This document shows positions 504 through 51,273 of a stretch of DNA of 64,000 bases, in pieces. The stretch is from a virus: positions 5,582 through 69,581 of the IMG/VR virus record IMGVR_UViG_3300022074_000027; one strand, given 5' to 3'. A program made the translations under genes and the position numbers. The first letter of the stretch is position 1; each line of letters starts with the position of its first letter. Below the pieces are notes generated by a model. That model did not search any database, was not told the origin of the DNA, and was given only the letters and a program-made list of their open reading frames with translations.

Positions 504-777
504 AGTGGTGATGTTTCTGTTTCCAAGTACACCACCGAAACTCAGTACGATTAAGCTGCTTGAGCGTAATCTACATATGCATTGTTATCGTTTGCATTTA
601 CGAGTTTTGACCTATTACGCAGTCAACCGATAATTCTACTCTCATCTCTACATATTAGTCGAACCTATTTCACCCCCATCATAAGCACACGATAACTGTG
701 CTTCCATGTGTTTATGGTGGAGGTGGAGGGTATCGCACCCTCGTCCTAATCATGCGTTGAATCGTATCAACGAATTA
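504..777 (-). ncRNA. ssrA: circularly permuted (two-piece) tmRNA
   Basis: On the minus strand: T-arm GAGGG-TGCGATA-CCCTC plus CACCTCC-ACCA ending at 715, a 37-nt intervening hairpin (678-714), then GGGGGTG (677-671) forming an acceptor stem with G3.U70; tag frame 595-551 reads ANDNNAYVDYAQAA*; outer ends approximate. Confidence 0.92.
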
Positions 778-782
778 TGTTC

Positions 783-790
783 TATTTATA
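783..790 (-). promoter_or_regulatory. T4-type late promoter TATAAATA upstream of the tmRNA
   Basis: Exact TATAAATA on the minus strand in the intergenic gap. Confidence 0.75.
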
Positions 791-48441: not shown

Positions 48442-48470
48442 ATCTTACCATGTTTTCAAAACAATGTCAA
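48442..48470 (-). promoter_or_regulatory. sigma70-type promoter with spacer palindrome (P6)
   Basis: TTGACA-17-TAAGAT; TGTT-N5-AACA at 48451-48463. Confidence 0.8.
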
Positions 48471-49414
48471 TCATTATCTGAAATAATTTGGTTTTGAAAT
48501 TCCCAATCTGGAGCCGTATAGTTCGGTGAGTTTATCAACTCTGCCTGTTTTAATACTTGTTCCTCATAAGATGAAAAGATATTCTTTCTTGACTTTCTTG
48601 CAAATGGAATTTGTTGTGCATCTAAATCATGAAATGCAGTAACAATCTTTACCTTGGTATCTGCACCAAATTCTTCTTTTACTTTCATTACTGCATCAAA
48701 GTTTGCTTTGTCTGCTCTCCTTGATTCTTCATGTACAGTTCCAAAAGACTTTATTACAGTTTTTATAAATGGCAAATTTTTTTCAATCTCTAATGCAACT
48801 GATTTTAAGACACTCTCTTTAATTGTTGCAACAAATTCTACAGCGGTCTTTAGGGTTTTTGCAATTTCAATTTTCATTGAATTCAACTCTGTTTTTTTGG
48901 TAACTTGTAACTCCTTTAAAACTTGTGTTATATCAGACTCTAAGATTTTTTTACCATCTTCTTCCATTTCTTTTAGAGTTAATTTTGCAGTTTGAATTAT
49001 ATCATCATCATTTCTAAACTCTTGTCCAAAATCATGACCTTTTTCTCTTGAATTTTCTATACTCTGAGCAATTCTTTTATTTCTTTTTGTATCAAATTTT
49101 ACAACTGCAACCCACATTTCTTTTTCACCAGCAGACTCATGTCCTTGATATCTATGATTGCCTGTTAATAAATCATACTTACCAGTTTCTTCATTAAACT
49201 CAACCATTGGTGGTTCATATGCAAAAGGTAAATAATCACCTTTCATTATTGCATTTTTAATTTTTTTAACTCTTTCTTTTTTTGCTGGTTTCTTTCTCGC
49301 ATGATTTATTATGTTAAATTCAATATCTGTAATCGACAACCACACTAATTCTACACTTATTAGACCAACATAATTTGGTTTTACTACTGTTTGTTTTCTT
49401 GAAATATTTGACAC
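48467..49414 (-). CDS. ParB/Srx-like N-terminal domain protein
   Basis: PPMV...YDLLTGNHRY. Confidence 0.65.
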   Translation of the reverse strand: MSNISRKQTVVKPNYVGLISVELVWLSITDIEFNIINHARKKPAKKERVKKIKNAIMKGDYLPFAYEPPMVEFNEETGKYDLLTGNHRYQGHESAGEKEMWVAVVKFDTKRNKRIAQSIENSREKGHDFGQEFRNDDDIIQTAKLTLKEMEEDGKKILESDITQVLKELQVTKKTELNSMKIEIAKTLKTAVEFVATIKESVLKSVALEIEKNLPFIKTVIKSFGTVHEESRRADKANFDAVMKVKEEFGADTKVKIVTAFHDLDAQQIPFARKSRKNIFSSYEEQVLKQAELINSPNYTAPDWEFQNQIISDND

Positions 49415-49443: not shown

Positions 49444-49472
49444 ATACTACCATGTTCTAAGAACAAAGTCAA
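49444..49472 (-). promoter_or_regulatory. sigma70-type promoter with spacer palindrome (P7)
   Basis: TTGACT-17-TAGTAT; TGTTC-N3-GAACA at 49453-49465. Confidence 0.8.
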
Positions 49473-49476
49473 GTCA

Positions 49477-49848
49477 CTATGCAACATTTCTTAATGTTCT
49501 TGACCTATCTGGGTGTCTTAACTTTCTTAATGCTTTAGCTTGGATAGAACGGATTCTTTCTCCTGTTACACTAAATTGTTGTCCGACCTCTTCTAAAGTA
49601 TGGTCAGTATCCATACCAATACCATATCTCATTCTTAGGACTCTTTCTTCTTTAGGAGTCAAAGTTGATAAGACTTTTGTAATAGCTTCTCTTATTTCAA
49701 AATCTAAAACTTCAGGCATTTCATAAGTATCTTCTAAAGTTTCAAATGACTCAAAAGGTTCTTTCTCATACTTGTTAAATAAATTTGTTCTATCCATATA
49801 TCTATTTCTAAAAACGCCTGGGGTCATAATTTTTCCTTTCTCTTTCAT
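49477..49848 (-). CDS. stand-alone sigma70 (RpoD) region-4 protein
   Basis: [55 protein letters not shown]; no regions 1-3. Confidence 0.88.
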
Positions 49849-49857
49849 TATGTATAT

Positions 49858-49886
49858 ACTATAGCATTGTTTTCATAACAAGTCAA
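49858..49886 (-). promoter_or_regulatory. sigma70-type promoter with spacer palindrome (P8)
   Basis: TTGACT-17-TATAGT; TGTT-N5-AACA at 49868-49880. Confidence 0.8.
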
Positions 49887-49932: not shown

Positions 49933-51273
49933 TTACATGAAATTCATTAATGGTGCGAATCGATTGATTCTTGATTCTGCGATTTCAAAGTATTCTTTTT
50001 CTTTCTCAATACCGATAAAATCAAACCCCTCGTCTTTTGCAGCCATGCCTGTAGAACCACTTCCCATAAATGGGTCAAGAACTGTACCACCTTTTGGTGT
50101 AACCATTCTACATAAGTATCTCATTAGGTCAACAGGCTTTACAGTTGGGTGCGTATTCTTTCTTTCAATAACTCTGTTTAAACCAATACCTTGTCCTTTA
50201 TCGTAACCCTCACCTTTACTTTGAGCTCCACCAGACATACCCATCTTTTTAGTTTCAAAATTATCTAATCCATCATTTCTTTCTGACTTAGAAGTTTTTG
50301 GGCAATAGAAAAACCTTGCCCATTCTGTTTCTAATCCATCATGCATAACATTTGCTGGAAATCTACCTCTAGGGTCTGCATCTGCATATTGTGTTCCCTC
50401 TGCTTTCATACCAGAGTTTCCATCTGTCCAAACTCCATCTTCACTTCTAGATTTACGAACTACTTTTTTTCTTGCAACATTTTCTGTTTGACCAAAACTT
50501 AGTTTGTCAATACCAATTGTTTCTTTCGATTGTTTACCAACATCTTTAAAATCTGGATTTGTATCTGGATACTTTGCATCATTACCCTCTATCCTACAAC
50601 CATCAATATTGATTGCACCAGTTCCATGTTTCAATACATTATCTACAATAGAACTTTCTGATAAAGGTTTTCTTGCCATCACTATAGGTTCGTGTGCTGG
50701 TTTCAATGCAGTTCCCCAGCCTTCCCATTCAGAATTACCTTTTGTGTAAATATGATTTCCAGATGTATTATTAGAGTTCCAACCATTATCATCATCAAAT
50801 GGTTTTACATTTCTAGTTCTTTCTCCTACTGCAACTCTGTCGTTACCTTGTTTCTTATCAACTGCTTTTCCCATATCCATACTCTTAGGAAAACCACTTC
50901 CATATAACCACATCATCTGGTCACGAATCTCAAATCCAGCATCTTCAATTGCAACTGCCATTCTATGATAATTACGAGAGGCAGAAAATGCAAGTAGATG
51001 TCCACCTGGCTTTAATAGTTTCAATGCAAGTTCCCAAGTTTCTGGTCTAAATGCAATATCTCCACCATCCCACTCTTTACCCATAAATCCAGTTGATGCT
51101 CTTGCATATGCACCATCTGTTCCAAACTGTGCTGGTGCAGAGTTTTCTTTACCAAATCGTTTTACAATAGATGTCAAGTGATATGGTGGGTCAGTAACAA
51201 CTGAATCCACTTGTACTCCATCATCAATTAGTTTCTGCATTTCTTCAATGCAATCTCCATTAATTATCATCAT
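49933..51273 (-). CDS. N4-cytosine/N6-adenine DNA methyltransferase (beta class)
   Basis: VTDPPY near the N-terminus; HPTVKP and LDPFMGSGST near the C-terminus. Confidence 0.9.
   Translation of the reverse strand: MMIINGDCIEEMQKLIDDGVQVDSVVTDPPYHLTSIVKRFGKENSAPAQFGTDGAYARASTGFMGKEWDGGDIAFRPETWELALKLLKPGGHLLAFSASRNYHRMAVAIEDAGFEIRDQMMWLYGSGFPKSMDMGKAVDKKQGNDRVAVGERTRNVKPFDDDNGWNSNNTSGNHIYTKGNSEWEGWGTALKPAHEPIVMARKPLSESSIVDNVLKHGTGAINIDGCRIEGNDAKYPDTNPDFKDVGKQSKETIGIDKLSFGQTENVARKKVVRKSRSEDGVWTDGNSGMKAEGTQYADADPRGRFPANVMHDGLETEWARFFYCPKTSKSERNDGLDNFETKKMGMSGGAQSKGEGYDKGQGIGLNRVIERKNTHPTVKPVDLMRYLCRMVTPKGGTVLDPFMGSGSTGMAAKDEGFDFIGIEKEKEYFEIAESRINRFAPLMNFM

Follow-up and report, generated by a model that had tools for sequence, protein, structure and literature searches.

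What can a virus gain from a detached piece of a bacterial sigma factor, the piece that reads the -35 element of promoters? This question is raised by a gene in a 64-kb stretch of viral DNA (the window, which is the whole stretch analysed and was taken out of a 69.6-kb IMG/VR virus record estimated to be 46% complete). The gene, hereafter the sigma-4 gene, is an open reading frame (ORF) of 123 amino acids (aa) that codes for region 4 of an RpoD-type sigma factor as a protein of its own. Our results point to an origin as the captured 3' end of an alphaproteobacterial rpoD gene, which marine T4-like phages appear to have retained as an accessory, early-expressed gene. As to function, we tentatively propose, with somewhat less than even confidence, that the product is made early, is directed at RNA polymerase as a surrogate of sigma region 3.2-4, and thereby uncouples the polymerase from reading of the canonical -35 element.

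A first-pass annotation had described the locus as a stand-alone RpoD region 4 protein with an altered TRERIRQIEAK segment, its own palindrome-class promoter and a ribosome-binding site (RBS), and this description was confirmed by Pfam, alignment, and the sequence. Pfam Sigma70_r4 (PF04545) matched residues 59-112 along the whole of its 50-position profile, scoring 62.9 bits (cut-off 24.1; E 2e-17), a match that places the protein in the Sigma70_r4 domain family. No second family exceeded its own cut-off in the Pfam search of the 123-aa ORF, and region 2 (PF04542), on which core binding and -10 recognition depend, was not found in it, region 4 being the only domain. Because region 2 is lacking, the protein is judged not to be a working sigma factor; the sole region-2-like match in the 69.6-kb record was gp55, at 20 bits and below the cut-off. 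PHROG 351 ('RNA polymerase sigma factor') also matched the ORF (E 3.4e-23), the only phrogs listed being 351, 36, 1740, and 3512.

The nearest solved chain was 7ye1_F, a 652-aa RpoD (Caulobacter crescentus according to the Foldseek title; E 2.5e-30), on which residues 47-121 aligned with residues 574-648 and the altered helix lay opposite svtrerirqieak. Residues 42-121 aligned with 528-609 of Escherichia coli sigma-70 (offset +488, with a 2-residue gap near the start), and G96, S101, and Q103 correspond to E. coli R584, Q589, and E591. R584 and Q589 are residues that we take to touch the -35 element. In the AlphaFold2 model, built with 53 homologues, residues 49-122 formed a block with predicted local distance difference test (pLDDT) values of 86-95, and residues 1-47 reached 47-62. 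Foldseek superposed 72-74 residues on region 4 of E. coli sigma-70 with a root-mean-square deviation of 0.8-1.0 and 62-64% identity, and 71 residues on C. crescentus 9pfq_F with 76% identity. Alphaproteobacterial RpoDs were up to 81% identical over 57% of the query, and the identity of the region 4 fold to RpoD ranged over 62-81%.

Relatives were collected by a word-indexed search of proteins of 67-216 aa, in which 1994 were scored at E <= 0.001 and the best 120 were examined. More than 50 stand-alone family proteins of 102-124 aa were found in uncultured marine T4-like phages. Alignment A2 holds 53 of them (P0001-P0056 and P0080), excluding P0019, P0024, and P0052, which have longer N-terminal extensions, and P0054, an RpoD-like fragment; alignment A3 holds 17 full-length alphaproteobacterial RpoDs. 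A homodimer prediction with two copies and alignment A2 scored 0.01 against a mark of 0.42 and was counted neither for nor against. The hhalign comparison of A2 with A3 gave one collinear alignment with a probability of 99.9, placing family columns 6-120 on RpoD 535-671. The entire sigma-4 protein can be aligned in order with the final ~137 residues of RpoD, as a shortened region 3.2 remnant followed by region 4, and ~16-20 residues of the region 3.2 linker are absent before region 4. BLASTP against one RpoD gave the same arrangement, with 49% identity over 140 columns and 20 gaps.

The N-terminal segment of the family, from ...TP... onward, falls on TPEEL...AKEPISLET of RpoD, where region 3.1 ends and region 3.2 begins; the N-terminal module of the family reads MTPGVFKNRYM...KEPFESFET. 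Nine residues of this part (E30, P31, F32, E33, F35, E36, T37, Y42, and E43) are invariant in 53 of 53 members, and from the alignments the acidic N-terminal 47 residues are identified as a remnant of RpoD region 3.1/3.2 and as the best-conserved part of the protein. The first-pass annotation had correctly recognised region 4 at the C-terminus and had missed this remnant. A profile of the N-terminal 43 residues matched 15 proteins at E <= 0.001 among 1.84 billion representatives, all of at most 168 aa. Region 4 is carried by 9 of the 12 matches read; the others were broken or truncated proteins (P0243, P0244), a 52-aa fragment (P0248), and a repeat protein (P0253). The N-terminal module thus appears, as far as these profiles tell, to be confined to the context of small region-4 proteins, and the N-terminal half had no match at E <= 1 among 50,697 phage records. 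The cultured-phage matches opened, from Vibrio phage D506 and Microcystis phage MaAM05, were annotated sigma-factor genes of 1803 and 1077 nucleotides (nt), respectively (~600 and 358 aa). In an Atlas feature search with residues 8-52 a Sigma70_r3 cluster ranked first (0.90) with few shared features, which is a lead only. As to possible delivery in the virion, reading of the N-terminus by eye gave no conserved I/L-x-E cleavage-type motif, residue 54 being N in 33 of 53 members, and the promoter is early. Two signatures of the alpha type, GIGM and GQQFSV, stand in place of the GIDM and GKQFDV of the E. coli chains and point to a donor of alphaproteobacterial type.

The family shares an invariant region 4 core in A2 (L60, L63, P65, E67, R74, L85, and K109). 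The turn between regions 4.1 and 4.2 is four residues shorter in 37 of the 53 members, and the window protein is among the 16 with an RpoD-like turn. Pairwise ratios of nonsynonymous to synonymous substitution rates (dN/dS) over seven coding sequences, six of them distinct (L004 = L005), were 0.14-0.44, so the family gene is maintained by purifying selection. The protein is thus a stand-alone, intact, selected copy of RpoD region 4 with changes at base-reading positions, which supports the first-pass interpretation in part. The ratios also bear on whether the gene could be a functionless leftover of a host rpoD fragment from illegitimate recombination. Assemblies do at times contain duplicated or chimeric rpoD 3' ends, as in P0121 and P0054. 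P0121 (281 aa) is an RpoD fragment with two tandem copies of region 4, and P0004 (118 aa, on a 996-bp contig) joins a phage N-terminus to a bacterial-looking region 4, its C-terminal half matching the tail of P0121; the two proteins may be assembly chimeras with bacterial rpoD or products of real phage-host rpoD recombination. Against a leftover stand a frame intact in more than 50 clusters, the low dN/dS, the invariant motifs, a promoter and RBS of its own, and a spread over two genomic islands and many phage lineages, and we consider this origin of the present gene extremely improbable.

The distribution of the gene is that of a mobile accessory gene. A scan of viral contigs gave 58 loci, in which family members lay on low-G+C contigs sharing T4-like genes with the window. 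The family gene adjoins a ParB-like gene in the window and in L064, and lies between ribonucleotide reductase and a bS21/RNase H region in L003, L004-L006, L052, and L058; comparison of these two different islands showed no neighbour gene kept across the family. A scan of metagenomes kept 80 loci, of which only L064 was clearly a family member and the remainder were bacterial rpoD.

In the recognition helix, TRERIRQIEAK is invariant in 17 of 17 RpoDs of A3, and the window protein has an altered 11-mer in its place. The 53 family members show 29 different sequences for this 11-mer, the wild-type one in P0004 only. At position 584 (E. coli numbering) 33 members have R, 11 have S, 3 have Q, 2 have I, 2 have A, and 1 has G; at position 589, 34 have Q, 13 have K, and 4 have S; and at position 591, 44 have E and 6 have Q. 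The residues of the window protein at these positions are thus found in only 1 (G584, the G96 unique to the window phage), 4 (S589), and 6 (Q591) of 53 members, and the idea of a conserved, rewritten helix did not hold up; the helix is hypervariable. The fold core, helix 2, I587 (49 of 53), and the basic stretch A594-K597 are kept, and positions 583-586 and 589-591 vary freely. For the flap-facing surface, judged from conservation only, helix 2 is well conserved and helix 5 is variable except for L607.

A quick maximum-likelihood tree from which the helix columns had been left out gave 13 changes at position 585, 12 at 584, 9 at 589, and 8 at 583. The remaining 61 positions of region 4 had a median of 4, and 0-3 changes were needed at 587, 588, and 595-597. 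L064 is the closest relative of the window for which DNA was available; between the two, the helix differs at 8.8 of its 26.2 nonsynonymous sites and the rest of region 4 at 7.0 of 152.7. A motif search read the helix in 50 of the 58 viral-contig loci. All 8 bacterial-type RpoDs among them keep the wild-type helix, whereas 37 small sigma-4 ORFs have 22 different helices and in no case the wild type; these ORFs are shorter than 200 aa and low in G+C, have N-termini of at least four kinds, and include some identical copies. Several small sigma-4 families therefore exist in viral contigs.

These findings can be joined in the following way if the protein is a surrogate for region 3.2-4 on the polymerase. 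The host sigma-70 holoenzyme would transcribe the gene early from its -35/TGn/-10 promoter, and the product would dock on RNA polymerase at the site of sigma-70 region 3.2-4, on the beta-flap and the RNA-exit side, with the conserved N-terminal segment as a second anchor. Region 3.2 folds on a partner in the sigma holoenzyme. The acidic motif (residues 28-47) was modelled as extended with pLDDT values of 52-62, yet contains the nine invariant residues, which suggests a segment that folds on a partner. The base-reading positions being no longer canonical, a polymerase carrying the protein would be uncoupled from TTGACA-type -35 reading. The outcome would resemble that of T4 AsiA: -35-dependent, mainly host, initiation would be depressed, and TGn/-10 promoters and gp55-dependent late promoters would be spared. 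The loss of the canonical helix in every lineage, by different substitutions, would be expected because a surrogate still reading TTGACA would change nothing. A study of AsiA indicates that the -35 element is recognised only with region 4 placed on the beta-flap, that AsiA blocks this, that TGn/-10 promoters, for which the -35 contact is unneeded, resist AsiA and stay active, and that helix 5 is part of the flap-contacting surface (PMC2988021).

Several observations weigh against this proposal. DNA-facing basic residues are retained (R588 in 49, K/R593 in 53, R596 in 52, and K597 in 53 of 53 members, with R562 invariant), which suggests that contact with DNA is still selected. Positions 602-609 in helix 5 changed 9-18 times on the tree, and some others likewise, so that the reading positions are among the fastest-changing, yet not uniquely fast. 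The likeness of the N-terminus to region 3.2 is weak beyond the KEP..ET motif. The gene is accessory, being absent from the Methylophilales phage Melnitz and from the 95%-complete genome G004, and is not needed for the basic programme. Binding to the polymerase, and with it an effect on transcription, is inferred from the sequence, and a free region 4 would have to compete with both the tethered region 4 of sigma-70 and the phage gp33, which uses the same flap.

The combination of fast surface change and a conserved scaffold could also be produced by a decoy that soaks up a binder of region 4, such as a host anti-sigma factor or regulator, a defence sensor, or the AsiA-like factor of a rival phage, with the variable positions as the contested interface. 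Helix 4 and helix 5 both show fast, repeated change, and the gene occurs as an accessory mobile 'moron' in two different islands. According to published accounts, AsiA contacts residues of regions 4.1 and 4.2 that normally touch -35 DNA or the flap (PMC2988021), and sigma mimicry serves partner switching by PhyR and NepR in alphaproteobacteria (PMC4551977). However, no candidate partner was identified, no neighbour gene is conserved across the family, and a decoy does not account for the strongest conservation being in the region 3.2 remnant, and we regard such a role as quite unlikely. The first-pass annotation had also proposed a decoy, one that keeps the protein-binding surfaces and loses or alters DNA reading. 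The kept scaffold and the freely varying base-reading positions fit that proposal, whereas the protein-binding surfaces are only partly kept, helix 5 being variable.

Comparison with known systems places the protein apart from each of them. Alphaproteobacterial RpoD has the same region 4 fold and is collinear over its last ~137 residues; the phage protein differs from it in being stand-alone and 116 aa long (see below), without regions 1-3.0, under an early phage promoter, and with a hypervariable helix and a shortened region 3.2. With AsiA, acting with MotA in T4, it would share the proposed outcome, in which the -35 and flap contacts are lost and TGn/-10 is spared, as described in PMC2988021, and both are early genes. 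However, AsiA is unrelated in fold and remodels host region 4, whereas here the phage would bring its own copy, and AsiA (PF09010) had no match in the Pfam scan of the 123-aa protein. The AsiA search likewise gave no match in the record, Melnitz, G004, and G001, a set that included no positive control genome. To our knowledge, AsiA and MotA are missing from the T4-like phages of the most abundant marine bacteria. The PhyR-NepR-EcfG system (PMC4551977) likewise uses a sigma-like domain as a mimic rather than as a sigma factor. PhyR mimics an extracytoplasmic function (ECF) sigma factor, is cellular, and has a receiver domain and a known target; none of this applies to the phage protein, and Pfam found no receiver domain in the 123 aa, only Sigma70_r4. 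By analogy the protein may work AsiA-like in outcome, gp33-like in its site on the polymerase, or PhyR-like as a mimic; by sequence it is none of gp33, AsiA, the LuxR/GerE type, and the PhyR type.

The T4 late co-activator gp33 is often described as replacing sigma region 4 functionally on the beta-flap, and is not known to have a DNA-reading helix-turn-helix. Like gp33, the sigma-4 protein is a small phage protein for which a place on the flap instead of sigma-70 region 4 is proposed, in phages with gp55 and gp45. The two have no sequence relation, as the PHROG scan of the protein gave no phrog_254 match. A replacement of gp33 by the sigma-4 protein was rejected, the record having its own gp33 homologue (phrog_254, at G000:C1:5482-5694). 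Since gp55 (phrog_234) and gp45 (phrog_223) are encoded as well, the T4-type late machinery is complete without the sigma-4 gene. Among cultured phages, those nearest to the record are the Methylophilales phages Melnitz (Kyanoviridae), whose DNA polymerase is 67% identical, with patches of 77% DNA identity. At the syntenic spot the window has a 198-aa gene, the ParB-like gene, the sigma-4 gene, and a DNA methyltransferase gene, and in Melnitz there is no more than a 40-codon ORF and a gene for peptide deformylase. The Melnitz paper reports no middle promoters (PMC9004378).

The presence of gp55 raises another explanation, in which the protein is the second piece of a split sigma factor: gp55 would give region 2, the sigma-4 protein would give the linker remnant and region 4, and some gp55 promoters would gain an upstream element without the clamp and gp33. 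As the only region-2-like domain in the record, gp55 would suit this role, and T4 gp55 has no region 3.2-4, which would leave those polymerase sites free. Two-piece sigma factors exist, namely SigO-RsoA in Bacillus subtilis and gp55 with gp33 in T4. However, TTGAC stands upstream of only one of the five TATAAATA late-type motifs in the window, that of the transfer-messenger RNA (tmRNA) gene. The promoter of the sigma-4 gene is early rather than late, gp33 is present and would compete for the flap, and close relatives with gp55 do not have the gene. A split sigma factor is therefore very unlikely in our judgement.

The features of the locus are collected in Table 1. The -35 element TTGACT (49886-49881) and the -10 element TATAGT (49863-49858) of the sigma-4 gene promoter have 10 of 12 matches, TG precedes the -10 (TGC at 49866-49864), and the spacer holds TGTTTTCATAACA (49868-49880). 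The second ATG of the ORF has AAGGA 6 nt upstream, and MTPGVF is the start in 46 of 53 family members, the 7-residue extension being found in only 3-4 of 53. The first ATG falls in a leader common to the sister promoters of the palindrome class. Because most relatives start at MTPGVF and the first ATG lies in this shared leader, the product is likely the 116-aa form rather than the 123-aa form. Contigs from RNA libraries (four libraries from two studies) cover parts of the gene with 0-2 differences, and one piece extends past the predicted start into the promoter. Two of the libraries are oligo-dT libraries and carry-over of DNA is possible, and these pieces are no proof that the gene is transcribed.

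Table 1. Features of the sigma-4 locus (window coordinates; residues numbered on the 123-aa ORF).
Feature	Position	Strand	Basis
ORF, 123 aa	49477..49848	minus	ORF list
Likely coding sequence, 116 aa + stop, from second ATG (MTPGVF...)	49477..49827	minus	ORF, family starts, RBS
In-frame upstream extension, 7 codons (MKEKGKI), probably 5' leader and not coding	49828..49848	minus	Rare in family, shared leader
RBS AAGGA	49834..49838	minus	Sequence reading
Early sigma-70-type promoter TTGACT-17-TATAGT with TGn extended -10	49858..49886	minus	Pattern match
TGTT-N5-AACA palindrome, within promoter spacer	49868..49880	.	Pattern search
Conserved acidic N-terminal motif, residues 28-47, probable RpoD region 3.2 remnant	49708..49767	minus	Alignment, hhalign
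Sigma region 4 domain, residues 49-122	49483..49704	minus	Pfam, AlphaFold2, Foldseek
Recognition helix segment, residues 95-105 (E. coli 583-593)	49534..49566	minus	Structure-chain alignment
Next same-class promoter TTGACT-17-TAGTAT, right behind stop codon, for ParB-like gene	49444..49472	minus	Pattern match

The palindrome in the spacer is a repeated element of the window. TGTT-N5-AACA occurs in 25 copies against 4.1 expected, a six-fold excess, and 0 of 100 shuffles reached 25. Eight of these palindromes lie in the spacer of TTGAC(T/A)-17-TAnnnT promoters, and a TGn extended -10 is found in 6 of these 8 promoters, that of the sigma-4 gene included, versus 1 of 15 other -35/-10 pattern matches. 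Such promoters flank family genes in L007, L041, L052, L058, and L064 despite different helices; an identical palindrome stands beside five different helices, TRER(I/V)RHLKCC among them. G001 (50 kb), with a family gene 79% identical, as well as G002 and G003, have no palindrome promoter and have early promoters with other spacers. Melnitz, without the family gene, has one palindrome match in 141.5 kb. G004 (145 kb, rated 95% complete) has three palindrome promoters, and in this genome no family gene was found at E <= 10 and no Sigma70_r4 match; the profile finds the gene in the record, G001, and G002 at ~1e-61. The palindrome and the sigma-4 gene thus occur independently in both directions. 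Because they dissociate, the protein is unlikely to be the reader of the palindrome; the first-pass suggestion that it might be the factor binding TGTT-N5-AACA is disfavoured, and we rejected this role, co-occurrence being lacking both ways and the helix not tracking the palindrome. The scan of viral contigs for TTGACTTTGTT-N5-AACA gave at least 118 stretches, mostly single matches that could be due to chance, and only multi-copy loci were used here.

A more general role as a free-standing, sequence-specific DNA-binding regulator, in which the region 4 helix-turn-helix is used in a LuxR/GerE- or LtrA-like manner, phage or host promoters are repressed or activated as a set, and the helix is retuned in each lineage to its own site, is unlikely in our view. 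The retained basic residues listed above would suit such a protein, the hypervariable helix resembles that of specificity-switching repressors, and the gene lies among promoters carrying an operator-like palindrome. Members of the LtrA family are small phage activators with a part resembling sigma70_r4 (PMC3753634). The LtrA-type activators of Gram-positive phages and the sigma-4 protein are both small phage proteins with a region-4-like helix-turn-helix; the former have limited similarity to sigma factors and activate late operons at terS, whereas the sigma-4 protein is a near copy of RpoD, is early, and has a region 3.2 remnant (PMC3753634). Helix and palindrome do not covary, one palindrome standing beside different helices, and palindrome promoters without the gene (G004) and the gene without palindrome promoters (G001) both occur. 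In addition, relatives with 83-94% identity already have different helices, a pace of change that a set of promoters could not match, and the Pfam scan gave no LuxR/GerE match at E <= 0.01.

A broader form of the surrogate proposal is that host-derived region 3.2-4 'sigma-4 surrogates' are widespread in marine T4-like phages and replace host region 4 in trans, their helices either erasing -35 reading or setting a private upstream code in each lineage; this generalisation is rather doubtful, though more than a passing thought. If true, it would mean appropriation of sigma by domain substitution, not by remodelling, evolving in an arms race. The recurrence of a region 4 copy in several families, with the canonical helix in 0 of 37, points to a general and testable route of polymerase takeover, and the naturally varying copies of region 4 could be used to study how the -35 element is recognised and the flap is bound. 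The full-text literature searched, with supplements and subscription journals outside its scope, holds no description of a phage-borne stand-alone region 4 derived from RpoD.

Other stand-alone region 4 families (76, 81, and 136-194 aa) with unrelated N-termini were seen on low-G+C viral contigs (L017-L034, L035, L037, L038, L040, L042, L048-L051, and L060). Several of these contigs share T4-like genes with the window, and none of the families has the wild-type recognition helix. Within the sigma-4 family, L007 (1438-1704) codes for an 88-aa member without MTPGVF...KEPFESFET that starts at MTLEKSYEMPEV directly after a palindrome promoter, which may be a natural N-terminal truncation. A small bS21-like gene, judged by eye, lies a few genes downstream of the sigma-4 gene in L003 (5465-5701), L052 (6830-7078), and L041 (1508-1756; cut-out coordinates in all three).

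The ParB-like gene of the window (315 aa, 48467-49414, minus strand; phrog_1033, E 1.2e-7) follows the sigma-4 gene and has its own palindrome promoter; a homologue also follows the family gene in L064 (443-1459). The N6/N4 DNA methyltransferase (446 aa, 49933-51273, minus strand) has a single Pfam match at residues 22-433. Since a profile of only 221 positions spans these residues, a large insertion between the methyltransferase motifs is indicated. The promoter of the tmRNA gene (755-790, minus strand) reads TTGACT, 17 nt, TATAAATA, and could serve both the host sigma factor and gp55.

The 25 palindrome sites span positions 3752-61032 of the window, and 17 of them lie outside the eight promoters, mostly within genes. 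In L280 (1432-1752, minus strand; G007), a contig without the family gene, the interval between two palindrome promoters codes for a protein of 106 aa whose Sigma70_r4-like helix-turn-helix is weak (15.9 bits, below the cut-off). The promoters of G002 and L008 have repeated spacers of their own, for example ...AAACGAATCAGT... and ATAAT-N6-ATTAT, which suggests lineage-specific promoter cassettes in the variable islands of other phages.

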